64,000 nucleotides of DNA from Curvularia clavata (Eukaryota): positions 744,001 to 808,000 of the forward strand of contig CP089276.1 of the NCBI GenBank assembly GCA_023920165.1, read 5' to 3'. The position numbers were made by a program, and so were the translations under genes. Below the pieces are notes generated by a model, which was given only the letters and a program-made list of their open reading frames with translations, was not told the DNA's origin and ran no database searches. Below, piece after piece: positions 15,068 through 44,818 of the stretch. How positions within the stretch are numbered: position 1 is the stretch's first letter; each line of letters begins with the position of its first letter.

Positions 15068-15851
15068 CTAGTGCAGGAACTCGTTGAAGAAATTGACAGC
15101 ACTCCTCTTGGCCCTTTCCAATCCAGCCTTCTGCTTGGGGTCGTTGGGATCGCCTCGCGCAGCAAAGCCGTGTGTCAAGCCTGGGAAATAGACGTACTCC
15201 CACTGCACACCCGTCTTTGGCAACAAATCAAATGTAGCCTGCTTCAATTCAGGTGTATATGCGAAGTCGTTTTCGGGGGCCAGGATTTGGACAGGCACCT
15301 TGGCCTGCTCAATTTCTGACTTCTCAAGCATGGACGGGTGTGCAGTCGAAATGGCGTCGATGAGGGAGGGATCAGCAGCGAGCTTGAAGCAGGCCCAGCC
15401 ACCATAGCAGAAGCCAATGGCTGCGACCTTCTTGTATTGCGACTTAAGGGTTTGAGCGTGCTCCTTGATCTCCGGCCAACGAGCTTCCTTGTTGTGGCGG
15501 CCAAGGAAGGCCATGAGATCGAAGTTCTTCTGCTTCTCGGGGTTAGAGAGTGCTTCCGGGTCTACTACTTCGCCGTCGAAACTGCGTAACAATGGTTAGC
15601 TGGAATTTGTGCCAAAAGCTGGTTGGTGCTTACAGGTCAGGCACGTATACAGTCGCATTGGCTTCCTTCGCATAGTGGTCCGCAATCAATCGAATGTTCG
15701 GAAGCGTCCAGCCGAAAATGTCGGTTATGATGAGGATAGCGGCATCTTTCGAATCGCCAGTAACGTAGGCATTGACCTTGTTAAGCTTGGTCTCCTTGCC
15801 AACAGTTTGGCCGTTCCACTTGAAGCCTTTCTTACAGTTGTCGCAGGACAT
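15068..15851 (-). CDS. Dienelactone hydrolase family alpha/beta hydrolase (intron 15633-15582)
   Basis: MSCDNCKKG, TDIFGW, nucleophile elbow GFCYGG, AHPS, END and HGF give a Cys-Asp-His triad. The intron restores VPDL-FDG. Confidence 0.92.
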
Positions 15852-17262
15852 CTTGATTCTTGGTATCGAGTGTTATGAGGGCGGGGATGTGGTAATGTTG
15901 TGATTGAGGGGTATTCGAAGGAGCCTGCCGGGGTGCGCAGTCCTTAAATCCATAAGTGGATTAATCTGCCATCCCAGTGAACATGGAAAGAATACAATCC
16001 TCAATCCGGCCAGCTCGCCGTGCCATGAACCAATCATTCGGCTCGGGGGTTACATGACACGAATTGACATCCGGTATTTCCAAACCCGTTACAATGATGA
16101 CGATTGCTACTAGTGCCGGATATGATCCTGGCATAGAGATGATGCCCAGATGAACCTCGATCGCCGAATTTTGCCGAATCTTACCTTGTCGGCTGGCAGC
16201 AAAACTTTATCACCGACGGCCGAAATGTTCCTTGTTCCTGTGTGGAAGTTCCAGTTTCTCCATAGTAGCGGCGCAGATGGGCATCGGTTTTCCGGACATT
16301 GATTACAAATCTCCGTCTGTTCTGGCGAAGCGCACAGGAGCTGTTTCGAGCTGTGCTGTTTCATTTGGAGAGGAACTTCAGTTTGGTGTGTTAAACTTCG
16401 CATAAACGGCATGGCAAATTGGTAAGAAAGGACCTTCTATGGTAACGCTGCATTGTGTCATTCCCTTATACACCTCTAGCGTCCATAGTTGGAACTTACT
16501 GCGTATCGTTTTCTGAGCTCATCTTGGCATTGCTTGTATGTACTAGGGTCCGCTGGGGTGTATGCCGCCAGTAGAGGTAACGACGTCGTTCCCTTAGACT
16601 GCTGGCGAAGATTGCGTGGGCTGCTTGGGCGAAGAGGGCAGCAAGAACTCCGCTACGGTCAATGAAAGCGTCCCATATTGTACGATTAGCTTCGCACAAG
16701 TCTTTCTGAGTCGATACTAGGCATCTTGATTTTCGTTCAAGGGGACGCAGACCGCCCTTGAGCGATTTGGGGATTGAAGAGGACATTGCGTCTCGGACGA
16801 CTGAACCACTGTAGTCGGCAGCGAGGATCTTCATGGTCCAGTCTATGCTTTAGGTAGATGGTACCGATTATCGCTATCGCGCTCGTCAATAAAATTCACG
16901 ACAAAGGTGAGGAAAGTAGTCACTAATCGATATGATATTGCATGCAACTTTCATAGCTGCTCTATTGTTCGAGATTGAACATGTCTGTTGACATGCTGGC
17001 ATGCGGGTGTTGCGGGTGAAATAATGTTCATTTCAATGTAATTGTGACGGTGCGTAGATGCCGGCAGTCGTGTGTGGATAAAGGAAGGAATCAGTGCTGG
17101 CTAACTGAGTAATCACTTGCATGCGCTAATCACTTCACTCCGACACTGCACGTTGCCCAGAATCACCCGTCCATATTCAGTGCAGGAGTGTTTTACCGGC
17201 GGAATCTCCACCCCATAAGCAAGAGATCCTCGGTTTGTAAGACTGACTCCCTTCCTGATTAA

Positions 17263-19122
17263 TCATAACTTCGCTAACCTTCTCTCTGTATTTGGCTCCC
17301 ATTTTTGAATATCTGAGCAGTTGCGCCAGTCTTCCGGGAAGAAGTGGGGCCCGAGTGTCTTCTTTTGAACTTTTCCTGTAGCCGTTTTTGGTAGCTCGCC
17401 GCTGACGACCCGCAGAAGTGTTGGCAACTTGTACCCAGCAAGTCTTCGACGAAGGTCACGCCGCAATCCGTCAATTGTCAACGAACCACCAGTACTCGGC
17501 TGCTTTCCTGCGAAATTCATGTTCAAGTCATCTTCTTGCAACGATAGAAGAGCAGCGACCCGTTGCCCAAACTCTTTGTCCGGGACGCCGATAATCACGG
17601 CTTCGGCGACGTATGGCAAGCTCAGCAACTCTCTCTCAATATCTAGGGCTGATATCTTGTATCCTCCCGATTTGATAATGTCTAGAGACTCACGACCGAG
17701 TATGAAGTAATAATTCCCTTCTCTTCGTGCGAGGTCTCCGGTTTTGAAATATCCGTCCTTGTCGTGTGCCTTTTCCGTGCCTTCCGGATCATCCAGATAT
17801 TTCATGAACATGTGCTGTATGCGATGAGAGCCATTCCTTGTCAGCATTGAAGTCACTTACCGGGCTCTTGACGAGTATCTCGCCTTCGTTGCCCTTCGAA
17901 AGCTTTACATCTATGCCAGTCACAAGCTCGCCTACTGATCCCTCGGGAGTCCCCCTATCTTCAAGGCACATTTTGAAGATTGCCCCGAACTCAGTTGCTC
18001 CGTATCTTTGCAAGATCCTTTGCCTCATGATATCTGTCCAAAAGTCATTCAGCGGTTGAGGTAACGCTGAAGTCCCACACAAACAGGCGCGGAATTGCCG
18101 CGCGCCTGCAATGTATGGGGCTAACTCATCTGGATTCAGCTTATGTAGATGGCGTTGATAATATCGCCTCAGCCTCATCCACATGGTCGGAACCGCTGAA
18201 AAGAATGTGAGCCGCCTCGAAGGCTGGGTTGCTCCTTCCTTCCAGCGCTTCCATGTCCAAGCCTCATCGAACCCTCCGCTACGAAACTCAATACAGGCAC
18301 CGGATACAAGGAATGGAAAAAGGTTTATGCCGACGCCTGTGGCGTGGTGGACTGGAAGCAGATGAAGTATGACATCGTCTTCAGTTAACCGATAGTGGTC
18401 CGCTATGGACAGCGCACAGTCAAAGACGTACGACCTTCGCATCACCGCGCCTTTAGGCTTTCCAGTTGTACCACTCGTGAAGATTACAAAAGCTGGCGCA
18501 TTCTCCTCCAAAGCGCGATCCGAGGAGATGACTATATTCCCAATGCCAAGAGGAGGAGATGAGATGGACGGTCCTATCGGCACAACCCGAAATTGAGGAT
18601 TGCTGGTAGAAGTAATGCATTGTTCAAGAGCATGACATGTTTCCATATTCGCAGAGCTGGCAAGAACAAGCACTGATCTCGATTTGTCGGTGAAGTAAAT
18701 CGCTTCTTCCACTGGTAAAGCAGGTGTCATTGGCACTGCGGCAGCCCCAAGCGCCAGTACCGCTAGGATTGCAACTGCGTATTCGTATCCGCCCGCTGCT
18801 GAAACTGCCATGTACACCTCTTCTCTCCTTTGCAACGCCATGCGTGTTGCGTCATCTAGAGTATCGAGGATGGTATGTCGCAAAGCCAAGACGTCAGTGA
18901 GCAAATCCAGATGGGTCTTCTGCAACTCTGCGTGAGCATCTTCAATGGCTACGCGTGCGGGAATTCGACTGGCATATCGGAGTAGCCGACTGAACAGAGG
19001 CTATGCACATATTAGCGAACACTTGGGGCTAGTGCGCATACTTGGGTGTGGTGAAGTCGTACAGTGTTCGGGAGCACGTTGTACCCAACGTGCCTAGGTA
19101 CCACATAATATCGGTCCTCCAT
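17263..19122 (-). CDS. Peroxisomal AMP-binding acyl-CoA synthetase/ligase, ACSF3/MatB-like (introns 19062-19001, 17860-17815)
   Basis: FTSGTTGKPKG AMP-binding loop, LPVHHATG, RYGATE, GYFKTGD, DIIKSGGYKIS, LPKTATGKV. Start MEDRYYVVPRH found by splicing. C-terminus -RRLAKL is a PTS1. Confidence 0.92.
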
Positions 19123-19699
19123 TTGGTGCTACAACTATTACAGCGATTTTGTTGCTACCCAGGAGTCGGAAGACAGATATATGCGCGCGGTCACATGCAT
19201 CCTTCGCACGTGTGTCAAGGATGCGAAGCGCTACTGTATCAAGCGCTTGCCAAGGTGCGCGGGGAAGCTCGAATCGCTTGTGGGGGGTCCATGGTATTTT
19301 GGTGCAGGGTGACCTGCTAGTCGATCGTGCCACAAGATCGCGGGGAAAGACTTCCGTGGCTGTCCCCGCAGCCTGTCGCTTCGGGCGCTAACAGCCGGGC
19401 GAGGCCGCTCAACAGTACCCGTAGCGTATGCCAAACGTCTTCTAAGCAACCTGTCATTTGACTCGCACAACAAGGACTGCCGTCTTGCCCGTTCCGCTTT
19501 TAGCGACTTGTATCATAAATAGGCTGCGTCCGACCGTTCTAGCGTCCGAAAAGAGACCAAGGCTATCGCCAGGGCAAGCGATTCCGCCACCCTGCAGGAC
19601 CGACTTCCCAACAAATACGGTAGTTTACGATGCGACCAGGAACAAGACTTGTGCCCAGCCCTACATCATCCTGGTGCACACGATACGCGAATGCTAAAA

Positions 19700-19729
19700 A
19701 TGATGATGATGATGATGATGATGATGATG
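19700..19729 (+). repeat. (ATG)10 microsatellite in the ligase/transferase divergent intergenic region
   Basis: Ten perfect ATG units read directly. Confidence 0.95.
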
Positions 19730-21423
19730 CTACCACCACCTATTCTCGCTTGTCCAGGCTGCCAGCCGGAGAGTACCAGCGCACATAACGCGTCTACCGT
19801 CGATTTCCGGTCAACAGCAGACTGTCGTGTGCACTCCACTCCACACCTCTCTCTGTCTGGAGTTACATCCATGGCCATTGAGTCGACGGGCCGCTGTGCT
19901 GTGCTGTTGAATGGTTTCTCGGGCTTACTTTTCCCTGTTTTTTTACTACCGTTGTCTGGCTGTCTGGCCGTATTAGGATTGAGCCCTATGGTGGCACCAC
20001 TCACAAGCAGCAACCAAACGGATCATCAAGCGTCGTTGGCTACCCAAGAGGCGTTACGTATGTGCTCGGAAGAGCTGACGGCTAGAGCTCGGCCAATTGC
20101 TCAGTTATTTCGGTGGTTCGTTTGCGCATCGTGCATAAGGCGTTTCGCTTACCGACAGGTTACTGTCGCAAGATGAGGTGTGGCATGCCTACCCTACTGT
20201 TGTCAGCCACAATGACTATAGCCACACCTACTTTTGCCCATCAACACCTTGCTGCTCGAAATGTTTGCTGGCATCAGATGACGGTTCCGACCCACATAGG
20301 GACGGGCCACCCGCAACGTGTCTCCGTAGGCGCCTACCGATCAGATGACGTCTCGCTACTGGTCTGCTGGAATTTCTTGCAAAGATACCTCACACCGCTT
20401 TGTACAAGATACTATTCGAAGGAACAAGATGGAGGTTGATGACACAGAGCTGGGGCGGAAGTACGTTGCACTTGTTGTCGCCAGGCCAGGGGTGCGTGAC
20501 TGGTGCGCGCACGACCATGGGTACCGACGCCGAGCAATACTGCAGCAGAGTTTTTGTTACCTTGGGCGTACACCGACCACGAAAAGAGGGACCTATTACG
20601 GCGCATCAGACGATTATGGTATCGGCGATCGAACCAGGCATGGACGGCATTCTGTTTGTCTTGGCCATGGATGCTGCAAAACTACCCAGGTTATCATTTC
20701 CAATGCGCCACGCTGTACCAGAGAGCCGCTGCCGCGACCGCAGGATTGGACGACGCTGGGATGCCCGAATGTTTGCAAGCGACAAGACAAGGCAAAGAAA
20801 AGACCGGATCCATGCGTCCCTGGCCCCTGCTGACCAGGATGGGAGACGTCAGCAAGGAACGATGATCATCTTTTTTTGCGAGGTGCATACCGCAACCTGC
20901 ACATCGCCTCGAACTATCAAGCTGAGGAAGAAAAGCAAAAGCTTCGAACGCCTCTTGCTGCCCCTCGGCCGCCTTGTCTCTCTGGCTGAGACCCTCTGCG
21001 AACCCCCGCGCGTCGGCTGCATGACATCCGCATCCGCCATGTTGGGTGGTTTGGTGGTGCCTTGGGCGCAATAGAGTAATGGCGGCCGGGGAAGGCGGCA
21101 CGAGACACGTTTGGCGCAGTCGAGGGTACGGAAGCGAGTCGTCGATAGGGCAGCCCGGCGGGGAAGCGGGCGACGGGCATGGCGTAGCCGCACAGATGTT
21201 TCCGCATGCGGCCATAGCACACTCGGTCCGTGGGAGGGTGGACCGATGCCGCCCCCCTCCGTCACATCAGGCGCAGCTCCATGGGACCTTGCGGTGAAGG
21301 GGTAAAATTGGCCTCTCGTGCTTCATATGTCGTGTGCTTGTTCACCTACTCGAAAGCACCTATGACTCTTCGGCGTTTTGACACACATATATATATACTA
21401 ATAGTTTCGGGAAACGCTCAGCC

Positions 21424-23251
21424 ATGTCATTAGACCTACCAATGCTGATGAGCAGGAGCCGGCTTCTGGGCTCTGTTGCCAGCTCTGCCCCCCGCCTACT
21501 CAATATGATCACCAAGCCGGACAATCTTTCTCGTCGAACAAAGTCGTTCCATCTTTCTTGCCTAGATCAACACATAGTGCGCGTGTACATACAAACGCTA
21601 TGCGTATTTCCCGTATGTTAATCCAAGCAGGGAGACAATTGCGTAGTAGGTGCTAACTTGAGGCGCCAGTTCCCTGACCAGAACAACGCTGAAGCTGCCA
21701 TACACAGCCTTGGCAATGGCCTTCGTCTCACACTCAGGAAATTCCCTTTCCTTGCTGGAACGCTTACTCTGCCGGATCCTGGAACAGGGAAGCTCGCTCT
21801 GGAATACCCAACCGAAGTGTCGGACGAAGAGCTCAATTGTATTTTCCGTTCCAAGCAAATCACGTACCATGAGCGTGACTTTCCGTACACGTATGAGAAG
21901 TTGAAGCGGGACGGCATGCCACCCAGTGCTTTCAAGGGCGCCATGTTTGTCCCTGAAGATCTCGCCGAGTATCCAGGTGTTTCAGAGGACGGCGAAGGCA
22001 AAGTGGATTTCGACAAGAGCGACGCACCTGCAATGCGATGCCAAGCATTCTTCATTCCAGGGGGATTGGTGCTTTCTACCTACATGCATCATAGTGTATC
22101 CGACTTCTCTGGCATCAACATCTTCTGGGAAGCCTTCTCCAAGAACGTATCTAGCCTCTCAAGCCAGCATATTCCATGTGAAAGCAGAGTCTTTGGTAAC
22201 TGGCTCTCATGAAAACGTTTCAACAACGACTGACCGTGTCAGATACAACCAATGTCGCTGAGAGACAATCACAACTTCGGCAAGCCGTCGATCGACATAC
22301 CGTCCCTCAGCGAACAGGAAGCAATGCAGACTGCTACTGCGATGGACCGCCCAAGTATCACAAGACCCTATCCACAGAGACTACATGCACCCAACGTCTC
22401 TTTGTGATCCCCGTTTCTCGGATACGCCAATACCGAGACAGACTGCGGCCTCATTTCCCACCCGAATATACGCCGACAATGTGCAATGTGCTTGCTGCCT
22501 TGGTGTGGACGCACATCACGCGAGCGAGGGGAGATCGACTGCTCGAGCATGGGCTGAAAGAGACGAACCTTGGTATCGCGACGGACTTACGCAAACGACA
22601 AAACCCTCGTATTCCCGCGGACTACATGGGAAACATGGCCCTGTTCTCGAAAGGCACTTTTAGTGTTTCAGATATGTTGGCTGAAGGCCGGTGAGTTTGC
22701 TCCCTGCTGCTGTCTCACTCACGGTTACACTTTGCGAACCCGCATATTTGTCAGACCGTACTTTGAGCGAATGCTCCCCTTGGATCTGAGAAGGTTCACT
22801 GACGAGATTGCGTAGTGTAACGGTGTCTACTATCGTTCGCGTGATCAAGGAGATCCAGAGCGCCATTCACAGTGTCGATGACAATTGGGTTTCCCGCCAT
22901 CTCAAGTTCTTCAAGTCAATCGACCAAATAACCGATACCGAACTTTCACTGGCCATGACGTTTGGCTCGGACATGTACATATCCTCTTGGCTAAACTTTG
23001 GCGCCGACCTCAGCTGGGGCATACCCGGTACTGACCACGGTAAGCAATCCCTTGCCGGTCGGCCCGAATTTATCAGGCGAACCTATGCACCGAGCGATGG
23101 TGGGATCATCTTCCTCCCACGACGTCGGCAGCCTGTGAACAATGCAGAAGCACCGTTTGAGATTTTGGTACGACTCGCCAAGGAGGACATGACCCGCGTG
23201 CTAGAAGAAGAGGGGGGCTTGCGTAGCTGGGCAGATGCCGTGCTTGAGTAA
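21424..23251 (+). CDS. CoA-dependent acyltransferase, BAHD/Tri101-like (introns 21613-21669, 22196-22242, 22691-22815)
   Basis: LSCLDQ, FPFLAG, FIPGGLVL, catalytic HxxxD (HHSVSD), LAALVW, DLRKR...YMGN, and SSWLNFGADLSWG (DFGWG-like). Three canonical introns keep one frame. Confidence 0.9.
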
Positions 23252-23742
23252 GATGGTGTTCTCAACTACCTGCCGGCATGTTGATATGCTCAGACATGGG
23301 CCGGGGGAGCATAATTGGCCCGGTGCAACAGGGCGTTTATTGGCATCTTTCTTTCTCGCGCTATGTTCAAAAGAGTGTTTGGGCGTTTGCTTTACTGCCA
23401 GGGTTATTCTTTCGGTCATCGGTTGGGTTTGGACATCTGATATCCTGTACAATTAGCTTGCTTTGGAGAAGAGTGTGGGGGAGCCCCAAAAAAGTTGCAT
23501 AGCGCTTGCTTCGGCAATGTTTTACGGCCGCATCAATCTTGTATCCTGTTTTATCCTATCAGTATTCGATGTGAAGTTGCTCAGATCATCATCCACTAGT
23601 CAGGATTCTGTATGTCAACGCGGTCTGCATCAGGATAGCCCCGCATGTCCGGCTCCACATGCCTAACACGCGAGGCCCCCGCATCATTGCGCGCAGCTAC
23701 AATGTCCCCGCCCGACTTTGTTGACACCATGAACGAGACGAG

Positions 23743-23748
23743 CCGAGG
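23743..23748 (+). promoter_or_regulatory. Putative FarA/FarB fatty-acid response site CCGAGG upstream of the acyl-CoA oxidase
   Basis: Exact CCGAGG about 200 bp before the ATG of a beta-oxidation gene. It is a hexamer, so chance occurrence is possible. Confidence 0.45.
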
Positions 23749-23943
23749 CAAGCAATACCTCTCATATCTCCGCGTTAGCCCCGGGCAATGACATCCGGTA
23801 TGGTCTTCCAACACACAGGCTGTATCACTCTGTTCGTGATCCGCAACTTTCAAAGTGACACGCCCACCACACCTTTGTTCCGGACGGCTGGCGGCTGGGC
23901 TTGATTGTAAGAGCTCGATAGCAAACAGGCGGCCAATTACGAC

Positions 23944-26231
23944 ATGGCAGATTTCACCGACAATCTCAAGCCCTTGTACGACGGCACGGCAATGCTCCAG
24001 GCGGAACGCGACGGCTCGCACATCGATGCCGATCAACTAGCACACCACCTCTTAGGCAGGGATGGCTTTCTGGACCGGCAGAATAAAGTCCTCGCCGTCT
24101 TGACTAAGGAGAAACTTTTCAGGAAAGAGCAGCAGCTTAACTTGTCTCGGCCTGACCGGTATCACCTGGGTCTGGCGAGAGCAAAGGCCATTCAGAGGCT
24201 GATGAGACAAGAAGGCTGGGATCACGAAGACTACAAAATGGCCGAATACCTGAACGATGAAATGAGTCCGTATTTCTTGCATATGAGCATGTTCGGTGAG
24301 TCCCGCAATGATTATGGTTGAGAATGTTATGCAGGACCTGTGTAACTGCGAGCTTGGAGGCTGGGCTAACGTGCTCGGCGTCACAGTCACAACAGTACGC
24401 GAGCAGGCCTCCGAGGAGCAGCAAAAGTTTTGGATTCCCAGGATTCTCAACTACGACATCATTGGATGCTATGCGCAGACCGAGTTGGGCCACGGGAGCA
24501 ACGTAAGAGGGCTGGAAACGGTGGCCAAGTGGGACCCAGTTGCAAAGGAATTTGAAATACACAGTCCAACCCTGACTGCCAGCAAGTGGTGGAATGGGTC
24601 AATGGGAAGGACTGCCACACATGCCGTACGCATCTTCCCACCTCCACCCCTGTACTACATTCCAGAACCCGGAAAGCCGCCTGAAAAAAAAAGCGTCCGC
24701 TGACGTGACCCATTTTTAGATTGTTGTGGCGCAATTGCTGTTGCCGCGATCATGCAGCCCACTCAACACGAACAGCGTTTCCAAACCCAATAGTGTCGAC
24801 GCTGACTACGTCCCTCACGGCCCGCAGACCTTCATTCTGCAGATCCGGGATGAGAAGACGCATCAGCCTCTGCCCGGTATAGCGGTCGGTGACATCGGGC
24901 CGAAGTATGGCTATGCCAGTATGGACAATGGGTATATGCTGTTTGACCACTTCCGTGCGCCAAAGTCGGCAATGCTGAGCCGGTATGCAGAGGTCTCAGA
25001 GGAAACCGGCACATTGGTGCGGACAGGACATCCGGCAGTGTTATACGGGAGCTTGACATTTGTTCGGGCACAAATCATCATGCATGCAAGACTGGTCCTT
25101 GCCCGCGCTGTCACAGTCGCAGTGCGATACTGTGCCATCAGGCGACAGTTCAAGGACCGCGACTCAACTAATCCCTCTGACGAAGAAATGAAGGTACTCG
25201 ACTATCCCACTGTGCAGATTCGCATCTTGCCGCTGCTTGCGACTACGTTTGCACTACATTACACGGGCGAATACATGTACACGCTGTACCAACGGTCGCG
25301 GGAGACTATCGAGAAGGGCGACTTTGGACCATTGGCTGAATTGCACAGCGCAAGCTCGGGATTAAAGAGCCTCTGTACCACGCTTGCTGCTGATGGTATC
25401 GAAACATGTCGGCGTGCGATGGGTGGCCATGGTTTTGGCGGCGGAAGTGGGCTCGTTGGGCTAAATGCTGACTACCTCTCCAAGCCGACAGTTGAAGGGG
25501 ACAACTGGATGATTACACAACAGGTGGCTGCATATTTGATTAAGAAAATGAGCGATGCTGTCCAACGCCCAACGACATCACCCCAAGACCCGACCGACGA
25601 GCTGTTCCAGTTCTATCTCAAGAACCGTACACGTCGCACGCCGCAGGTGGTAGTGGTGAAAGAAGGAACGGTAGACGATCAAAGCATAGTCGAAGTCTTT
25701 CGATGGCGGGCAGCAGACCTATCCTATCGTGTCTATCAGGCTCGTGTAGTGGAGGAGCAGCCGTGGACCCGTCTGATGGTACAGCTGCACAACCTCAGCC
25801 GTGCATACTCTGAGCAGATTCTGGTCAGCAACTTCTACAATGGCCTCGGCTCTATTCCTTCACCCAACCAATCGGTCTTGCGGACATGCTTTCGGCTGTA
25901 TGCCTTATACACGCTTGATCAGTATGCTTCATCGTTCACGATGACGGGTGCCGTTCCGCCTGAGTCTGTGTATACTTTGCAGAATCTGATACTTGATTTG
26001 ATGGCCGAGTTGCGTCCACACGCCGTGAAGCTGGTAGATGCATGGTCAATACCAGACTGGCTTCTCAATAGTGCCCTTGGTAGGTATGATGGCAAAGTAT
26101 ACGAGGAGCTGTTCGACATGGCGCACCGGAAGAATCCGTTGAACAAAACAACGTTCAATCCAGACTGGCGGAGTGATGAGATTGTGCTGGGCAGTGGAGA
26201 CGGAGGAAGGCATATACTAGCAAAGCTATAA
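23944..26231 (+). CDS. Peroxisomal acyl-CoA oxidase, POX1/AoxA family (introns 24296-24386, 24626-24719)
   Basis: GCYAQTELGHGSNV, SKWWNG, GDIGPKYG...DNG, AVRYCAIRRQF, CRRAMGGHG, catalytic PTVEGDN, SALGRYDGKVY. C-terminus -ILAKL is a PTS1. Confidence 0.95.
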
Positions 26232-27321
26232 AAGTATGCAGTGGCGTCCAATTAGGCGAACGGGTATCTGACAGAAACCCGTCAAGTGTCAAACGTGACG
26301 AAAAGCCGAAACTTGGGGTAGCGTGAAACCGAATCGTGAAGATCATTGATTCTCGACCCACCCCTCATTTTCTTTGCGAGTGACTGCGTCCGGTGAAGGT
26401 TGGGTAGGAATACATGGTAGACAAGGGAATAAAGAGAAGAAGTAAAAATCTACCCCTGAGAGGACGTCATGGCACAGCGGCTCCACTGTCTAGCTGCAGC
26501 GTCCTGCACAAAGACTGGAGCGATATCTCCAGCCAACAGGCGATTCTGTAATATGGGGCTAGGCGACCGTTGCAAAAGGGCCGATGAGAGCCCAAAGCTG
26601 ACATGTTGCTGGTGATTCGAGGCCCCTGCTGTATGGACTGTTGAAACAGCGGTTTCTTGTGCATGTGGTGGTCGGGTACTTGTTCGGAAGCGGGCGGACA
26701 GGAGGGCCAAGCATAGCAAATAGGAGGGCAGCCAAAGGATGAGAAAGGTTGACGCTAGCAACTGGGCACGGCGGGTCGAAACACGCATGGAGTTAGGAGG
26801 CCTCTACTTGCTGTAGCAGTGTCCGCAGAAGTTGGAAAGCCGTTGGGCTGCCAAGGCCAGTGTCTTCTCCGAGTTGAGTTTGACTCAGCAACAGTCGGAG
26901 GCCTGGCGCTTGTGACGCACGACGCACGACGCACCAACTGCGGCACATCAAAGCACCCCATGCAGGGCCGTTTTCCCGACCACCGGGCCTGAACCGCAGA
27001 CAACCCCCCCATGCTTCCCATACCATTCTTTGCCCATTCTCTGCCAGCCAACCTGCATGGACTTTCTTCCGCTAGCTACCGGGCGCTTACCTTGACGTGT
27101 GTAACGGCCCTCGACTGGGTTTCAGCCTGAGCTGCACACGTGACGGCGCGCTACACTCCTTCTGGCCTGCCCAACTTCTACGTGCTTTGCGCTCCACCAG
27201 ACCCGGGACAAAGTGCCATACTTAGTGGCATTCCGGTTGGGTCATTCTTTTTTCCTGTCCCGTAATCATTACCTCGTTGTTGGTCATTCCATCTGCTTGC
27301 ACTAGACCCCGTTGCCTGTCA

Positions 27322-29601
27322 ATGTCCTATCGGGGAAGGCCCAGCAAGGGTTGCGAGGCTTGTCGAGCCCGTAAGGTCAAAGTGAGCACTTTTCTTTTAC
27401 TCAGGGCCGCCCGAAGACAAGGCTAATGTCAGCGTAGTGCGACGAAGCTAGGCCGTCGTGCAGTCGCTGCACAAAGTCCAACCACGAATGCAAGTACCGC
27501 GACCAGGCCGATATCCTCTTTCGGAACCAGACTGCTTCTGCTGCGCAGAGAGCAGAGGAATCATGGCGAAAGAGGTCCAAATCTCACCAGCGTCCATCTA
27601 CGGTAGAGAATAGTGCTCCCTACGTGAAGACTCCTCCAAGCGATGAATCGACTCCGCCGGCGCTCGACGACACGCGTTCCTCCAACGGCAGCGTACATTC
27701 GCCGAGTGGGTCGACTGACGACCCCTCCTCTCAAGATGCATCCAACATTGCCCTCGCCACTATTGACCTTAGTAAAATGACCATTACGCCCGCAGTGAAC
27801 CCTGACTTTCGCCGAAAAGCATTTGAGCGCTTCGTGTACGACTTTGTTCTGCCAGACTCGCCGACACGGCCAAAGGACGAGCCTTCTGATGCGTTGTGGA
27901 CTTTTATCCCCGTGCTGTACCAGGGCGCCGCGGAGGACTCTCTGATAGCTACTACTGTCGATGCTGTTTCTTATGTCAACTACGCGAATCGATGCAACGA
28001 TGCCCATGCCGCTGCATTAGGCGAGGAGTGCGTTGCCAAGGCTATTCCCATGTTGACCAAGGTCATTGCGGATAAGAAGCGGTCGGCCACCAACGAAGCA
28101 TTATGCTCAGTCTATCTTATGGGAGTTTATGAGGTATGCAGAGATTCTTGTGAATAAGGAAGCAAAATCTAACTTGGTTAGAACCTCACCAACGTGCAGC
28201 GAAAAGGCACGTTTCTTGCTCATCACCACGGCGCAACGGCTTTACTGCAGCTGCGAACGGTAGAGCAGTACTACAGCGATCCAATCTCAGCCAGAGTCTA
28301 CGAAGTCGCCTATGCACAGATGGTAACATTGCTCCATGTGTTTTCTGTACCTCGCTGACTCCCCACAGTTACTCGGCAACCTACAATCTGCCAAGCGCCC
28401 GCCCATGCCTACGAGAGAAGTGGTCAAGTCAGAAGAATACCTTCCAAGTCTCTACAGCAACTCTAATGTCTTTGTTATTCGGCTGATCTGGAGAGAAGCC
28501 ATGCTCCATGCGCAATGGCACGAGATCAAGCAAAGCGCGCATCCGCCTATGACCCGCTTGGCGATGCAAGAAATTCTACAGGCTGCTATCCAGTTGGAAA
28601 ATGACTTTCAGGCCTGGGAGTCGGCAATAACGCCAGCTTGGGATTACCAAATTGCACCAAACACACCAGAAGCTCGGGCAGCGTATGACGAGAAATGGCA
28701 GAGCCTCTTCTTGGCGTGTCGAGGCGCGCCGCCGGAGATTCATGCATACCCTAGCCTTAAGAGATGTTGGATATGGGGGTTTTACCGAACGACCCGGATA
28801 TTTCTTCTGCGTGACCTTCTCGAGATGCTGAATTGGATGTTGCGATTCCCGGAACCGGCTCCGTCGTATATTTCCCAAACTGGATCCGGACCGACAGCGC
28901 TGGGTGGAGAACCTATCTCCACTGCATTCAGTACTAGAAGCCTGCGCATGCGTCATTCAGCTGTTACTACTCACCTGGTCGAACTCATTGAGAGAAATAG
29001 CTCAGCTCTGCTTGGCAGTTTTACCGTCCCCATACATCTCAAGTCGTATCACGACGTTGTGGGCATGAGAGGTTACATTTGCTTATGGCCATTGGGTATC
29101 ATGGATGCCGCCCTCAGCTCAGGTCTTGTTCCTGACATCAATACACCACAGCCACCAACCGATTTTTCATCTGCTCAGATACCATCACCGAATTCCGACA
29201 GTTTCCGACCAAGCAGCGACTCGAATCTCAAGCATGCATATGCAGTAGCACCACCGTTTTCAGAACTTTCTACTATCATCTCGAGCACGGACAGCGACCA
29301 AGCATCGAGCACAAGCAACAGCCCAGTGAACAATGTACCAGCATACGACCACATGGCGAAGAAGAACCACGTCTTTGACTCGAACCCGGCGCACCCTTAC
29401 GACGGCCCAGTTAATCTTCCACCGGATTTTGAAGTGCCTGAGCCAAAGACATTGGATGTAGCGGCGAGACGCGAGTGGATCAACCGACTCATGTACTACG
29501 TAGCGATGGAGCTGGGGCTGAAGAAGGCGCTCTATGTACCGCTGACCGAGGGCTACCTACCGATAGTGAAGCCTAGTGTCGATCACATCCTGGGGCGGTG
29601 A
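27322..29601 (+). CDS. Zn(II)2Cys6 transcription factor (introns 27382-27437, 28134-28181, 28323-28368)
   Basis: Not in the ORF track as one piece. Spliced N-terminus MSYRGRPSKGCEACRARKVK|CDEARPSCSRCTKSNHEC is a complete binuclear cluster. The downstream region contains HHHGATALLQLR. Confidence 0.92.
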
Positions 29602-35863: not shown

Positions 35864-36385
35864 CATGGTCGTGGGGGCCTTGGTCACGTGGTGCCCAAGC
35901 AAGTGGGGTGCTTCATCGTTTGGCTGAATCAGGCCAAATCTATACCTTAACCTCAAACGGATGACGAAACACGAAATGCTATTTCAACAAGGTCTGCCAT
36001 GAAAACCTTAAGCGGTCTCTAGCCAAGAACAAAGCAATCACGCGCTGGGTCGGGAAATGACATCCAGTGTAGTTGCATCCCAGCTGATACAGACTCTTGT
36101 CCTTTGTTTTTTTTTCAACTGCAAAAGCCATTGGCTGTGACCTGGCTCAGCCAGCCTTTCGACATACTCTCGGCGCCCGAACATTAGATTACATCAACAT
36201 TGATCGGTGTGGAATGTAAGCAGCATGTGATCCCCAATTCGTTGTGGCTTGTCTTATCTCCCACTATTTCCGTCCTATCCAAGTGAATGTTGCTTGGACG
36301 TGGGACATGGATAATGCAATAAATTATCGAACCTCGTCACTACTGGCTGCCAATTGTCCCTTTGTGAAGTGGAATCGTACTTACC

Positions 36386-38126
36386 ATGGTTTTCCTAGTC
36401 CCCGTTGCTGTATTCCTCGTGGCCATCACTGTCCTGCATATCCTGCGAAAGCTCTGGCTAAACAGACATGTCTTACCTCTACCACCAGGGCCCAGAGGAC
36501 TTCCCATTGTGGGCAATGTCAACGACATGCCCAAGCCGGACGTTCTCGAGTGTCACCACTGGTTCGAGCACAAGGAAAAGTACGGTCCTATCTCGTCTGT
36601 GACTGCCATGGGCCAAACTATAGTTATCATCAACGACGCTACAATCGCTCTCGATCTCCTCCGTGACCGCTCTTCCATCTACTCTTCACGGCCCGGTTTC
36701 AATTTTGCCGGTGACATGTAAGCCTAGCTTCTAATTGCACAATTTTACAACTAGTAATAACTGAGCTGGTGCTAGGGTAGGCTGGCGTCACGTAACTGCT
36801 ATGATGCCGTACGGCGATACCTGGAAGATCCACCGGCGCAACATCACAAAGATCACAAGCACGACTACTTCGTTGGCCGAGTTCGACCGCATCCAGGAAG
36901 CCGAAGCCGCGTACTTTCTTGTCAATCTGCTCGAGGCACCAGAGCGTTTGCTAGATCATATTCGGCATGAAACCGGCAGTGTTATTCTCAAGATTGTATA
37001 TGGGTATGATACTGCTCGTCATGAGAGGGATCCACTCGTCGATATGGCGGAGACAACAGTTGCACAGTTTGCTGAAGCTTCGGTGCCGGGGAGGTGGGCT
37101 GTGGATATCTTTCCATTTTGTATGCTCTGTTGCTTTCCCACTTTGCTGGCTTCCCGTTTCTAACGCTTATGCTTAGTGAAGTACCTCCCCACCTGGGTCC
37201 CCGGAACAGACTTCAAAAAGACAGCGCAGGCCATGTCTGACCAACTAATCCAATGCGTAAACCAACCCTACGCCTTTGTCAAACAGCAAATGCGCGAAAA
37301 GCGACACTCGCCATCTTTCCTCTCGCAATCCATTGCTGTAATAGGCACAGACGCTGAAATGGAATTCATCCACAAGTGGACGGCACTTACTCTCTACCTT
37401 GGAGGCGCAGATACCGTATGTTTCCTCCCCTTCCCTATCTCCCTCCACTCCCACATGCCACCAACCAGGTGTATCTAGACCGTCTCAGCCCTCAGCATCT
37501 TCTTCCTCGCAATCTCTCTCTTCCCCAGTATCCAAAGCTCTGCCCAATCCGAACTCGACGCCCTCCTCGGGTCGCCCCCTCGCCTCCCAACAGCCCAGGA
37601 CCTCCCCCACCTCCCCTACATCGACGCCCTCGTCAAAGAAACCCTCCGCTGGCACCAAGTCGCTCCCATGGGCCTCCCCCATACCAACACCGCCCCGGAC
37701 ACCTACTCCAACTACCGCATCCCCAAAAACTCCATCCTCATCCCTAATATCTGGGCTTTTATGCACGATCCCTCCGTTTATCGTGATCCTTTTGTTTTCC
37801 GCCCAGAACGATTTTTAGGCAAGGACGCGGAGCAGGATCCGAGAGTGCATGTGTTTGGTTATGGGCGAAGGATTTGTCCGGGGAGGTATATGGCGGATAG
37901 GGCGTTGGGAGTTACAATTGCCATGACGTTGGCGGTTTTTAGTGTAGAGAGGGAGGGGGAGAATGAGGTAAGGTTTAGTCCGGGAGTACTGAGTCATCCT
38001 GGCCCGTTTAGGTGTAGGATTAAGCCGAGGTCGGGGATGCATGAGGAGGTGGTGAGGGTGGTGAAGGAGAAGGTGGCGAGTGAGAAGAGGGGTGATGCGG
38101 AGGAGTTGAGGGGGGTGAGGTGGTAA
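36386..38126 (+). CDS. Cytochrome P450, CYP64-clan/OrdA-like (introns 36718-36775, 37120-37176, 37416-37478)
   Basis: N-terminal anchor plus PPGPRGLPIVGN, I-helix GGADT|T, KETLRW (ExxR), FRPERF, heme motif FGYGRRICPG. Confidence 0.94.
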
Positions 38127-38464
38127 GGAGGTTGTGTCTGGGATCAGTTGAGCGTTAATGATGTGCGGATTTACGAGGAAGCTAATGTTTAGAGTTTGAA
38201 GTAGCTGTGCTACAGCGAATGATATGTGCATTACAATTTGAGGATTGAGTAATACATGTGGTGAAGTACAACTCTTTGCACTTGTCCGAAGCTTACCCGT
38301 CCTACCTGTCCTTCCATGTTATTTTTTCCATACTGCACATACACCCAACGGCCATTGAACTCCCCCCATAACCAATAGTTCTTCATTCTACAGACTCCTA
38401 CAACCATGTCCTCACCTTCCCCACATCCTTTGCCCAATCTTGCTACCCTTTCACCTCTCTTGTC

Positions 38465-39475
38465 TCACACACCCACCTTCCTTACCCACTCCACAAGTAG
38501 ATAGGCGCCACTCGCCACGCCGGACCCCAGCAACGGCCCGACCCAATAAATCCAATCGTACCCTTGAAACTCCGTCACAACCGCGGGCCCAAAACTCCTC
38601 GCTGGATTCAGACTGCCCCCTGTAAAATACACACTACTCAACTCGGCTACAAACAGGGCTCCACCAATGTACATGGGTTTTGAGTGCGCGCGCTCAAGCA
38701 TCAGAATGGTAAGGACTAGTTGAGCCGTGACGAAGGCTTCGAGGAAGAGGCCACGGGTTATTGAGATGGAGGGCGAGAGCGTCGTGGTGACGGTGAGGGC
38801 GCCCGGGAGGAGGCCTGAGATGAAGGCTGACGCGGCGATGGAGGCGATGAGTTGCGAGAAAATGGTTTGGACGGCGCGGTACCAGTGAATTTTGCGCGTG
38901 AGGAGGAGGGCAGTGGTTACCTTTGTGGAGTTAGATAGGGGTTCGAGCGGAGTTAGCAAGAGAGTGATTTCATGTTGTTGTGAGGTGCTTCAAGGTTGCT
39001 CTAAGGTTGATTTGGGATGGTGTGATACGGTTGTTAGGTGCTGACGTATGGGGTACTTACAGCTGGGTTCTATTTATACATTAGCTTTGTCATTTCTGGA
39101 GACTTGATATCAATGCTTCTTCTCAGATAGGAGACTTACAAACTTCCCACCACTAACATCAGCAAAGATGGCGACGTTGATAGCGAGCGAAATGCCAAAG
39201 GAAAAGGATATGTAGAGCAGCTTGGACACGTTTGGAGGGGGATTCTCGGTCTCCGCTACACCCGGGCTGCTGCTCACTGCGTTTAGCGCAATCTGGGTGC
39301 CGCTAAAGGCCATGGAGAGAAACATGAACGTCCCGATAAACTCTCCTAGAAAAGCAGGGGCTTCAGTGCGGAAGCTGTGGTGTGGTCTCGGGGGCTCAGA
39401 GGGCGTTGCCGTCGATACCTCGTGCAATGGGAGCATGGAGCCATGGTCCTTATCGTGGGAACCGTTTACTGACAT
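38465..39475 (-). CDS. Aquaporin (MIP family); exons 39475-39140, 39069-39061, 38920-38465
   Basis: GEFIGTFMFL, ISFSFG, VSGGKF|NPA|VT, FLEAFVTAQLV, TGGSLNPARSFGP, WIYWVGP. Confidence 0.93.
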
Positions 39476-42400
39476 GTTGGGTTATTCAATCTTTTTTTGT
39501 AACTATACAAGTTGATTGACGAGTTTTCAAGATGACGGAAGGTGTTTGAGAAGTTGTTGAGTGCCTGGCTCAACCATGGGGGATATAGGTGACGTTTTTG
39601 TACCTTCCTATCCGCCTCGACTACCCACTTAGTTGCCACTGTGTAAGGCTGGCACATTAGAAATTCCCGCTCTCGACGCTGGGCAATGGATGATCAACAC
39701 CTCAAGAACCTGTCATCAGGCAGGAAGCCATACACAGCGCTAGAAGCGGCCCTTGGACGCATTAGTGGCTTGCGGGTACTGGCGGATGTATTGTGATTGC
39801 AACATTCTGTGCCTCAAGTACAATAGAGCTAAAGTAGACCCACAGTTAGTCGTCTGACCTGAACGCTGCCGTAGTCATATATCAATGTAGAACCATGCTG
39901 TTGATGTCGATTTCAATCCCACTTTAGATCACTGATATCGTTACAGCAGGACAAGCGTGGGGGGCGTTTGCCCTTGCCTAAATAGTACGCATCTCACATC
40001 GATCAGACCACCAGAGTTCGCCAATAGTTCAATTGTTGAGGGCTGAAAGTCACTTCACGTGCGGAGACTATGCACAATGACATTAAAAGGTTGCACAGCT
40101 TCGTTAAACCGGCGACTCGTGGCGGTTGTTGTGCTGTCCAGTGGTTCAATAAAGTCGATTGCCCAAGTACCTTGTATGTGCATGCGTTGTTGCCACCGGC
40201 TTCGAGAGGAGATGCCTTTGAGAGCGAAGCAGCAACCAGAAGAATCTTCGTCGCACCACCTGAGTTGGATGCGTATGGCCAGAGTGGTACTGACCGATGA
40301 GGAAGACTAGCCCTGACAACCAACCTCTCTTTCGTCGCTCATCAAGAACACAAAGCATGCTATTCGTGCTAAGGATGGTGACTGTACCACAGTGTTAGCC
40401 CAGTCTGCTTATATAGACACTCCAACCATTGTTTGAAGTTACCCTGCTTGTTGAACTTTGGTATTGTGATCATTCGATACCGTGCAAGCGGTCGTTAGGA
40501 GTGATGGGCGTACAGCATGTTCAGGCCAGCCTTACCTCGAATCACGTCTGGTACCGGTGTTATGGGACTGCCGTCGTGCCTCAAACAAATCACCCGCTTT
40601 CCCCTAGTTAGTATTTATACATGGAACTTTTGTAGGCAGTGGTGATGCATGCAACCTGATATCGATGCTGCGGCTAAGTCGGTGGTTTCAACAGCGTTTA
40701 ATGCCTCTAGTACGCCATGCTGACTATCGCCAAAACCATTGTGTTGGGACCTCTAGTCGCACAGTCTGCAGCTGTCTCGTGCCAGCGTCTTTTGACAGTG
40801 CCTGTATATTCACGCCGGGATGATATTTACTGTTGCTTAGTGCCAGATAAAAGGCTCATGAATACTCCGTAAGTTGGCCTGACTTGCAATGGAGCTGAAT
40901 CGGTTTCACTCTTGATGACGCTTTGGTGGAGAAGTTGGAGAAGGCGTTAATCCTTGCTCGAAGTACCTCTCCACGCGTTCTTTGGCTTGGCTGAGCTGCA
41001 TGCTGACGGTAGCCACGATTCAAGGAAGGAACTTGACCCTATGAAGCTAACACAGGGCGAATTCATGAGCTGGACGTGCTCTTAGAGGCAAAGACCAGGG
41101 CGGAGAATTCAATGTACGAGATGCCAAGCATGTGCTAACGCCGATCGAGCTTAAGGCATTGGCTCCTCGGAACCCACAACCCGCTGCTTCCCGTATCGAC
41201 GATCTACTGCCCGGCCCGTAGTATAACCGATCATCACGAGGAGAAGATTGCATGGGTCATGTGCATCCACTGGCAGCAGGTATTCTGTGTTAAGCCGACC
41301 TACAGTTATTCAACGTGATGAATGATGTCGGTCGTGGCTGTTAATTGTTGGGCATATGTATCGAGTGTTGAGCATGCCTATCAACTGTCAATGAAGCGTC
41401 GAGCGCGGTGGTTTAATATTATGTGTAATTATCAAATGTCGGACATAGTTTTTGGCTGTCGGGTATGATTGTTGAGTGCCAGACGTGTTCATGAAGTGTC
41501 GAGCGTGGCTGGTGAGTAGTGTCAAGATCGCCAATGAGTGTTGATTAATGCAAGCCGCTATACGTGCTAAGTCGTATCTGAGTGTTAGGAACGACTCGAG
41601 AGAGTACAGGATAGTGTATACAAAGAGGAGATATGTGTTTCAGAACGTGGCTTACCAAGTGTCAAGTATACTACTCGCTTTTTAGAGTTGGCTGAGCATT
41701 GGATATGATGATTGAATGTCGGAAATGTTCAGTATAGCGCCTGAATACCAGGCGTGGTCATTGAGCTGTCCACTATCAAGGGTCAAACGGGTCGAATGTC
41801 GAATGTCGGATGTTGTGTACTCAATGTTACATTTCCAGCAGTCAGTGTCGAGTGTCGCTGCCGACTGGTTTTCAAGTCATTATAAAGTGCTCATTGTTAG
41901 CGCGTCAGCGCCTCAACTGTCGGACTGTCGAGCTGTAAGATGTGAGATCATCGATCGCCAAGTCATCATATGTGGTTTCCAAGCTTCCAGGCGTCAGTGA
42001 GTGTTGCTATTGGGTGTCAGGCGAGGCTGTTCAGTATCGTTAGCCATGATCAATGCACCTAGTATCTAATATTTAGCCTCCAAAAATACCAAGCGACCGC
42101 CGAAATCATCAACAACCAATAGTTAAAGTGACTAAGTGCAACTTGTTGAACATGATTTGGTGCTACATAGGACAATGGCAACCAGACATCACTAACAGCT
42201 ACTAGTCAACAGCTGCAATTTTTGAACACCAGAACTACTATTCAAATCAATCTTCCGTATACCGCGGTTCAGCTACTCATTGGAAAATGCAGCAGTATAA
42301 ACAAGAGCAAAAAGTAGTTTGGTACGCGCCACACGGCGTACAATGTTCACGAGACTGTCAGCCTCCTTCTCACCTTCAATCATCGCGTACCTACATTCAG

Positions 42401-42996
42401 ATACCTGCAGGCGCCTGTCCCCAATAAAAACCAAGGTAAAGTTCCGCGGATCTAAATTTGTAGATTGCGAGCGCGAGTTGGCATCCATCGCCGAGCTGTC
42501 AAAAGCGCCACAATGGACCAATGCGCAATGTCTTCCGCTAGCGTTCGAATATCTTCCTCTAAACGGAAAGCAGTTTAATCTAAGCGTCCATCAAAATCTT
42601 GGAACGCCGTTCTCCCGCTTCGGCAGAAGCTTAGTTGCTGATCTTTCCCGAACAGAGTCTTGGTGTTACTCTGAAGAATCTATCCTTCCCGATGCAGATT
42701 GGAAGTCACCAGCCACGTACGAAACCGCGCATTTATGTCTCCATTATTACAACACTCAAGTTCATATGGCACAATGGAGAGATGTTAATTGGTAGTCGCC
42801 GTGTGGAGGCTCATATAACAACGACAAGCTGAGCCGAATGCGACTCATGGAACTGTACAACGAAGCGCGATGACGACCACGTTAGCATTCGAACACCAAA
42901 TTGGTGGATAAGATATGACGATATGATAGAGAAGGCGAGGTTTAAAAGCACAGAGGTGAGTCTCTAGATTCTTTCATACCACGAACTACAGCAACC

Positions 42997-44501: not shown

Positions 44502-44818
44502 TGGGGTTTGGTGCAGGCCTACTGTTGGAGAGCTTGTTGAATCACTGCGATGCACCAGGATACAATGACCAAGGTCGATTTCATATTTCTGGCATAATAG
44601 CACTTCACTCGACTGTGGTTACGTGTTGGAATTCCTCTGTTGGGGTTGGTACTATATTCGTTCAATTCAATATCAACAATTGCGTCCCAGCACTCGTTTT
44701 GGCTGCTTCATTGTGGATCGCCCCTTGATCACCTCAGCTTAATCACGCATCGTGGCACAACGCCGAGACAACCCCTTATTTTTTCCCGTGCACAAACACT
44801 CACGACTCAGCTGCTCAC

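Follow-up and report, generated by a model that had tools for sequence, protein, structure and literature searches.

Gene content of the locus

We analyzed a 64,000-nucleotide stretch of the Curvularia clavata genome (assembly GCA_023920165.1, contig CP089276.1, positions 744,001 to 808,000 of the forward strand), hereafter the window, in which an earlier note had proposed a cluster of five consecutive genes at positions 15068-29601. These were a hydrolase, a coenzyme A (CoA) ligase, a BAHD acyltransferase, an acyl-CoA oxidase and a Zn2Cys6 transcription factor, which together were thought to release, activate, shorten and conjugate an unusual acid. The window is fungal, and in our tree its oxidase groups with those of Bipolaris and Exserohilum inside the Pleosporaceae. 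Five intact genes, with no internal stops, were modelled at 15068-29601. All 11 of their modelled introns were present as joints in contigs assembled from four runs guessed to be RNA (RNA-type evidence). The genes and one additional spliced unit are as follows:

15068-15851, minus strand: dienelactone-hydrolase-family protein, loosely linked; exons 15851-15634 and 15581-15068; 243 amino acids (aa)
16378-16923, minus strand: spliced unit between ligase and hydrolase; introns 16874-16923 and 16448-16499
17263-19122, minus strand: MatB/ACSF3-like CoA ligase, core gene; exons 19122-19063, 19000-17861 and 17814-17263; 583 aa, C-terminus RLAKL
21424-23251, plus strand: Tri101-like BAHD acyltransferase, accessory gene; exons 21424-21612, 21670-22195, 22243-22690 and 22816-23251; 532 aa, C-terminus VLE
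23944-26231, plus strand: acyl-CoA oxidase of a second clade, core gene; exons 23944-24295, 24387-24625 and 24720-26231; 700 aa, C-terminus ILAKL
27322-29601, plus strand: Zn2Cys6 transcription factor, probable bystander; exons 27322-27381, 27438-28133, 28182-28322 and 28369-29601; 709 aa

Pfam calls, in the order of the five genes, were DLH; AMP-binding and AMP-binding_C; TRI-like_N and Transferase; ACOX domains; and Zn_clus. The five genes are real and spliced as modelled, but there may be six units rather than five because of the spliced minus-strand unit at 16378-16923, whose introns were seen in one of the four runs. This unit holds a 134-aa open reading frame (ORF; 16834-16378) that had no Pfam match, no relatives and no usable Atlas match, and that is unlike the HExxH gene found at the same place in relatives (best E 4.5). 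It is possibly an orphan gene, a decayed gene or ligase read-through, the last because one run assembles the ligase, the orphan unit and the hydrolase in one contig. Two predicted proteins of 1901-1910 aa joining BAHD, oxidase and transcription factor (P0441 and P0442), and one of 923 aa joining ligase, orphan ORF and hydrolase (P0451), were considered as fusion proteins and rejected. We read them as merged automated gene models, since the type 1 peroxisomal targeting signal (PTS1) ends and the stop codons have been dropped and the hydrolase, BAHD and transcription factor have separate poly(A) or 5' ends.

The translated models of the ligase and oxidase both end in LAKL, as the earlier note had stated. 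The PTS1 consensus [SAC][KRH][LM] ends only 3 of the 150 stop-terminated window ORFs of at least 100 aa, two of the three being these enzymes, and 110 of 120 oxidase relatives end in AKL or SKL (close variants in the other 10), so the shared signal is more than chance. Catalytic residues are intact in all four enzymes; the claim that all signature motifs are retained does not extend to the second motif of the BAHD protein, described below. No ketosynthase or condensation domain was listed inside the window range (C3:744-808 kb), nor was a terpene cyclase found among the 54 window ORFs or exons scanned with Pfam, in agreement with the earlier statement that the window lacks a polyketide synthase (PKS), nonribosomal peptide synthetase (NRPS) or terpene cyclase.

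Linkage of the ligase and oxidase genes across fungi

Metagenome contigs were scanned with the oxidase exon, and the best 80 of 94 loci were taken and reduced to 60 groups at 85% nucleotide identity, 31 of which were informative in having at least 1.2 kb upstream of the oxidase. A ligase orthologue was present in 26 of the 31 informative groups; among the 15 groups with 4 kb or more on each side, 14 had one. The two genes were directly head-to-head in 20 of the 26 (gap 0.3-1.5 kb); three had a BAHD gene between them, two had ~3-3.6 kb between them and one had them on the same strand. Linkage was retained down to protein identities of about 48%, and the linked loci branch with named proteins from the Pleosporales, other Dothideomycetes and Chaetothyriales, as well as in deeper clades of the oxidase tree. 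The remaining neighbors, among which 96 of 102 selected ORFs were scanned with Pfam (most others having been scanned earlier), vary by lineage.

A third gene, encoding a crotonase (ECH_1, C-terminus AKI or AKL), was found in 17 of the 60 groups; of the 15 that extend 4 kb or more on each side, 11 had it. In the present genome the orthologue lies outside the window on the same contig, 280 kb from the pair:

G000:C3:1050579-1051307: crotonase orthologue (L085), intronless, C-terminus AKI, 70% identity

PTS1-type ends occur throughout on the ligase, oxidase and crotonase of linked loci; predicted peroxisomal signals are thus a property of these three proteins and not of the BAHD or the hydrolase. 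Since linkage was held while other neighbors turned over, the ligase and oxidase, with the crotonase where present, appear to be the unit under selection. The conserved third partner is therefore a gene lying outside the window rather than a member of the proposed five-gene set. In the L051/L052 and L071 clusters, the ligase, crotonase and main oxidase are accompanied by an additional, distant acyl-CoA oxidase, and in L071 and L076 a major facilitator superfamily transporter lies between ligase and oxidase.

Linkage of the pair exceeds background synteny, and the pair combines a CoA ligase with a beta-oxidation enzyme, as hcsA-katA-type clusters do. Background synteny does exist in the Pleosporales, so that the whole arrangement might in principle be passive, with no functional link between any of the genes. 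We regard this as extremely improbable, given that the head-to-head pair is kept at about 48% protein identity while its flanks turn over, and given the PTS1 and promoter motifs common to both members. Judged gene by gene, passive synteny is strongly disfavored for the ligase and oxidase, plausible for the hydrolase and likeliest for the transcription factor. The synteny expected of the five genes was accordingly found for the ligase and oxidase, but adjacency of the transcription factor was confined to the Pleosporaceae and linkage of the hydrolase was loose.

The acyl-CoA oxidase

The genome has three acyl-CoA oxidase genes. In a tree of 91 rows, with the most distant paralogue as root and loci of fewer than 450 aligned residues excluded, the clade of the window oxidase was separate from the other two copies with a support of 0.995. 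Over the best stretch, it has 53% identity to the presumed AoxA-type copy (L002), so labelled from its three CCTCGG-type (Far) promoter sites and general motif, without a named reference sequence. Placement in a clade apart from L002 indicates that the window oxidase is not the orthologue of the housekeeping long-chain enzyme, and the suggestion that it could be an extra paralogue rather than AoxA was borne out. The third copy (L003, G000:C5:361341-362606) is divergent (32%), ends in PKL and adjoins a sugar-isomerase-like gene.

The window protein has the ACOX domains, and its E456 aligns with the catalytic E421 of rat ACOX1. Around this residue, the signature S-K452-P-T-V455-E456 (S-K-P-T-V-E-G in 119 of 120 proteins) replaces the P-A-C-T-F-E421 of the rat enzyme. 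Lysine four residues ahead of the catalytic Glu was seen in 119 of 120 proteins (54 of 55 groups), the same position being Thr or Ala in the genome paralogues and Ala417 in rat ACOX1. In all 55 groups, Val455 stands in place of the aromatic residue preceding the Glu. A carboxylate on the substrate may find its counter-ion in Lys452.

The ligase pocket and candidate substrates

The ligase has the catalytic motifs FTSGTTGKPKG and TGD and the residue K548. One close copy was found in the genome, the next match being at 30%; a named relative was found in Aspergillus, and an Atlas search returned only generic AMP-binding clusters. Its closest solved structure is the malonyl-CoA ligase MatB (3NYQ, E 4e-18), with aryl-CoA ligases scoring lower. 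Ligase residues R352, T330 and T241 align with MatB R283, S261 and H189. Of this MatB/ACSF3 pocket triad, Arg283 is conserved in all 23 groups, Ser261 appears as Thr or Ser in 24 of 24 and His189 is changed to Thr or Ser in 24 of 24; a further residue, Met286, is replaced by Ala, Ser or Gly. In MatB, Arg283 and Ser261 bind the free carboxylate of the substrate, according to the available text of PMC6122825. A His189 shrunk to Thr/Ser while Arg283 is kept would suit a carboxylate on a longer chain. From its sequence, the ligase is best regarded as a MatB relative in its mode of working and is not classed as a malonyl-CoA synthetase. MatB and ACSF3 (3NYQ, 4FUT) give its best structural-sequence match, but it differs from them in the His189 and Met286 changes and in a PTS1 in place of mitochondrial or cytosolic location, and it scores far below the family cut-offs.

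If the ligase and oxidase do form a catabolic pair, their likeliest substrate class would be acids that carry a second carboxylate and exceed malonate in length, medium-chain dicarboxylic acids for example, a proposal that we put somewhat below an even chance. Dicarboxylic acids are abundant in suberin. Fungi are documented to beta-oxidize adipate (PMC7348727, in the part available). In Aspergillus nidulans, the accessible portion of PMC4117967 gives AoxA as the main long-chain enzyme and AoxB as not induced by suberin; if AoxB belongs to the clade of the window oxidase, this counts against long suberin diacids as inducers.

Alternatively, the pair could act on aryl-alkanoic or branched acids (dihydrocinnamates, indole-butyrate-like or methyl-branched acids) and not on dicarboxylates. 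A ligase, an oxidase and a crotonase make up the enzyme set needed for such acids, and Val455, by replacing an aromatic residue in all 55 groups, could open space for bulky or branched groups. Aspergillus niger also has a peroxisomal beta-oxidation of dihydro-hydroxycinnamates, as described in the available text of PMC8140964. The hydroxycinnamate ligase HcsA of that pathway, however, belongs to the very-long-chain (FatB) family (same source), whereas the window ligase is MatB-like, keeps the carboxylate-binding Arg and scores higher against MatB than against aryl-CoA ligases. We consider this alternative unlikely.

Promoter sites

Hexamers were ranked in the shared ligase-oxidase promoters (22 after de-replication), and the top ones included CCGAGG and CCCCGC. 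Controls were 76 non-coding stretches, matched in length, from 24 of these loci (5000 resamples). CCTCGG/CCGAGG was present in 16 of 22 promoters against a control mean of 5.4; the maximum in 5000 draws was 14, and none reached 16. CCCCGC was present in 15 of 22 against a control mean of 4.2. FarA and FarB act on fatty-acid catabolic genes through CCTCGG, the FarA/FarB site (PMC5068947, available part). The sites in the window are:

19259-19369, minus strand: ligase promoter, three CCCCGC/GCGGGG hexamers
23639-23748, plus strand: oxidase promoter, CCCCGC at 23639, 23677 and 23706 and Far site CCGAGG at 23743 (-201)

We take the GCGGGG hexamer to fit CreA, whose general consensus is SYGGRG. CCCCGC lies upstream of CCGAGG in the oxidase promoter of seven of eight Pleosporales loci, the eighth having only 151 nt. 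A CCCCGC-type hexamer also occurs at about -190 to -240 of the ligase in L008, L019 and L054, and the ligase promoter block at 19320-19405 is 79% identical in L008. The site expected of the FarA/FarB regulon was found at -201 of the oxidase and at -174 of the displaced crotonase, and not within 1 kb of the ligase, hydrolase or transcription factor. Upstream regions of the transcription factor had neither a Far nor a CCCCGC site in 5 of 5 cases, and those of the hydrolase had no Far site in 3 of 3. Based on the Far site and the CreA-type hexamer in the shared promoter, the predicted regulation points to catabolism, rather than to the conjugate biosynthesis of the earlier proposal.

The gap between ligase and BAHD (window 19123-21423) is 2.0-2.4 kb, constant in length in four loci and mostly under RNA-type contigs. 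It contains a (GAT)n run at about 19700-19728, and long ORFs at 19500-21300 that had no Pfam match and whose position is that of an untranslated region (UTR) or promoter.

The BAHD acyltransferase and the hydrolase

The BAHD transcript extended from 20572 to 23532 in one run, its 5' end at 20572 giving an 850-nt leader; an alternative start at the Met at 21505 would give 505 aa. The H204xxxD208 motif is present, and HxxxD was invariant in 19 of 19 relatives. DFGWG is the second BAHD motif; in the alignment of relatives it is replaced by NFGADLSWG, with the W invariant. A word-based search, limited in reach, returned 44 proteins, all of the named ones from the Pleosporales. No PTS1 or type 2 signal (PTS2) was found on the window protein or on any of the 44 relatives. 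All five locus groups with a BAHD gene have it beside the oxidase, and consecutive tags or accessions place the two together in Exserohilum, Plenodomus, Boeremia, Lindgomyces and four Bipolaris species. One short element recurs in BAHD-bearing loci:

23438-23452, plus strand: 15-mer TGATATCCTGTACAA, in the BAHD 3' UTR or far upstream of the oxidase

This 15-mer is identical in the window and in 5 of 5 foreign loci with a BAHD gene, absent from the other loci and single-copy in the genome. Its UGUA core resembles Puf-protein sites. We propose that BAHD is an insertion of Pleosporales age that would have split an old shared ligase-oxidase promoter. The structural comparison is with Tri101-type acetyltransferases (2ZBA), which have the same TRI-like_N and Transferase domains and an intact HxxxD; the window protein is distant from them (E 1e-17), has DFGWG replaced, belongs to a Pleosporales-only clade and has no trichothecene context.

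The hydrolase has the triad C131/D178/H210 and the PF01738 domain of the dienelactone hydrolase family. No PTS1 or PTS2 was found in the window protein or in any of 120 relatives. By accession numbers, its distance to the oxidase was 1, 4, 4 and 5 in Zopfia, Glonium, Clohesyomyces and Pleomassaria and 20 in Lepidopterella; it was 3-4 tags from the oxidase in Plenodomus, Neocucurbitaria and Paraphaeosphaeria. Relative to BAHD, it was 1 and 6 accessions away in Dendryphion and Lojkania and on a separate contig in Trematosphaeria. Between L008 and L019 the hydrolase switches side, along with the unrelated HExxH gene. Passive synteny is plausible for the hydrolase because of this joint movement and because housekeeping neighbors in the Pleosporales also stay linked (L009, L011). 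The HExxH gene is fast-evolving, about 450-500 aa (L019:1051-2583, L054:920-1554, L008:9803-9955), and absent from the window.

These data bear on whether the Pleosporales have a four-gene conjugating pathway, in which ester or lactone opening by the hydrolase would precede activation and shortening of the acid by the peroxisomal pair, a cytosolic BAHD then transferring the acyl group to an acceptor, either in detoxification or to make a small backbone-less metabolite. The constant placement of BAHD beside the oxidase and the nearness of the hydrolase to oxidase or BAHD in several genera are as such a pathway would have them, as are the invariant HxxxD and a Far site at 20963. That site, however, lies inside the 5' UTR of run X11; no Far site was found upstream of BAHD in 3 of 5 cases, or upstream of the hydrolase in any; neither family has a peroxisomal signal; and the hydrolase is distant from the oxidase in Lepidopterella and on a separate contig from BAHD in Trematosphaeria. 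Its movement with the HExxH gene is what local inversions of a syntenic block would give, and linkage in the Pleosporales extends to housekeeping neighbors. We consider the four-gene pathway a minority possibility, improbable but not negligible.

The Zn2Cys6 transcription factor

The Zn2Cys6 gene adjoined the oxidase in only 3 of 60 groups, each from the Pleosporaceae (2 of the 29 groups with at least 2.5 kb downstream), and was absent in L008, L009, L020 and L054. In 6 of 60 groups the pair is found with another Zn2Cys6/Fungal_trans gene, whose best match in the genome is at 30%, in a distant locus. The co-conservation expected of the regulator of a secondary-metabolite cluster is thus confined to these three Pleosporaceae groups, and the transcription factor is a probable bystander.

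That all five genes form one pathway under the adjoining factor, as had been proposed, draws on their being intact, adjacent and transcribed, with an order kept in the Pleosporaceae. Set against this are the rarity of the factor beside the oxidase, the different regulator that travels with the pair elsewhere and the lack of Far and CCCCGC sites upstream of the factor. We judge such a five-gene pathway very improbable. The release-activate-shorten-conjugate module was also not upheld on account of the BAHD being found only in the Pleosporales and of the missing peroxisomal signal on BAHD and hydrolase.

Proposed pathway

Overall, the sequence evidence favors a model in which the ligase and oxidase are probably an old, widely kept fungal core pair for the catabolism of a non-standard acid. 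The pair would be the surviving core of an old ascomycete mini-cluster, usually with a PTS1 crotonase. We hypothesize that both enzymes enter the peroxisome via their PTS1 ends, where the ligase would convert the acid to its CoA ester and the dedicated oxidase would yield the 2-enoyl-CoA. The crotonase-family partner may then shift the double bond or hydrate it, leaving FoxA and thiolase of the general peroxisomal machinery to complete chain shortening. Given the promoter sites, FarA/FarB would turn the module on and glucose would probably turn it off, the adjoining Zn2Cys6 gene having no part in this. Candidate substrates are medium-chain dicarboxylic acids, whether derived from plant lipid polyesters or produced by omega-oxidation. 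BAHD and hydrolase are at most candidate participants in the pathway. In its broadest form, that of a backbone-less, peroxisome-linked acyl-CoA cluster for an unusual (here predicted) acid, we judge the earlier description right.

Several observations weigh against the catabolic-core model. The ligase was not found in 5 of the 31 informative groups (L005, L023, L064, L067 and L073), although the sequence of L005 stops too soon, behind a BAHD. The window's ligase has no Far site within 1 kb, and CCTCGG is missing from 6 of the 22 shared promoters. SYGGRG was not enriched (20 of 22 against 18.4 in controls), so the glucose-repression reading depends on a single hexamer chosen after k-mer ranking. 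Because the controls were not promoter-only and the loci are related, the counts overstate the motif enrichment. Similarity of the ligase to MatB is low (about 30% class similarity), and all NCBIfam models fell below cut-off. In the predicted model of a close oxidase relative, pLDDT (the predicted local distance difference test) was <50 at 434-457, which makes the pocket position of Lys452 tentative. Lastly, the presence of BAHD beside the oxidase in every Pleosporales case checked, together with the invariant 15-mer, may be a real link.

A wider proposal combines an ascomycete-wide peroxisomal pathway for medium-chain dicarboxylic acids, built from a ligase that recognizes the carboxylate, a Lys-bearing dicarboxylyl-CoA oxidase and a crotonase, with a Pleosporales BAHD whose insertion into the shared promoter would divert a catabolic intermediate into a conjugate, turning a catabolic cluster into a backbone-less biosynthetic or detoxifying one. 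Such a pathway would account for the orphan second acyl-CoA oxidase of filamentous fungi. We consider this combination quite unlikely.

Comparison with known systems

The closest parallel is hcsA-katA of A. niger, likewise a backbone-less grouping of a CoA ligase and a beta-oxidation enzyme with PTS1 ends, kept across many genomes and feeding a non-standard acid into FoxA-type beta-oxidation, as the pair described here would do (PMC8140964, available text). According to the same text, hcsA-katA consists of a FatB-type ligase and a thiolase and is limited to the Eurotiomycetes, whereas the pair has a MatB-like ligase, an oxidase and a crotonase and a wider range. By analogy, the pair may work like hcsA-katA with different enzyme families. 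As in A. nidulans, where AoxA and AoxB belong to the peroxisomal acyl-CoA oxidase family (PMC4117967, in part), there are two or more paralogues per genome; the window oxidase differs in not being the AoxA-type copy of its genome. Podospora is without an acyl-CoA oxidase in the account available from PMC3338752. Pc13g14410 and Pc13g14420 of P. chrysogenum were considered as an adipate-induced oxidase/ligase pair and set aside, since literature searches gave no hits for this and the available part of PMC7348727 names different genes.

AK-toxin AKT genes have a PKS link. PTS1-bearing acyl-CoA enzymes are shared with the AK-toxin AKT system (PMC3173629) and with penicillin side-chain activation (PMC7348727), in the available parts of both sources. 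In the former, all AKT proteins carry PTS1 and the toxin is strain-specific; here two of four enzymes carry it, conservation is broad and the promoter sites are catabolic. No account of the ligase-oxidase pair was found in the literature searched, which was mostly without subscription journals and does not show absence from print; the available portions of PMC3764329 and PMC12445448 contain nothing on it.

Filamentous fungi have extra acyl-CoA oxidases and many CoA ligases without an assigned substrate. For one such oxidase, the present data point to a probable ligase partner, a third gene product, a regulatory site and two residues of the pocket, so that the question could be addressed with three proteins and a limited set of substrates. 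Should dicarboxylic acids prove to be the substrates, the pair would bear on how fungi exploit the monomers of cutin and suberin, and on strain engineering in which adipate-type side chains have to be spared from breakdown. Through the BAHD insertion in the Pleosporales, a catabolic cluster may have acquired a conjugating step.

Other features of the window and related loci

Upstream in the window, pectinesterase and DUF1996 genes were called with Pfam, and downstream (36220-53604) genes for a P450, an aquaporin, a heme-thiolate peroxidase, a HAD hydrolase, a WSC-glyoxal oxidase and a methyltransferase. Elsewhere in the genome, a giant NRPS is encoded by a 13,064-aa open frame with at least 10 condensation domains (G000:C4:4310783-4347262). 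Tandem 2EXR/DUF7730 genes follow the oxidase in L009 (four, L009:3334-7011), L020, L007 and L011, none being noted in the window.

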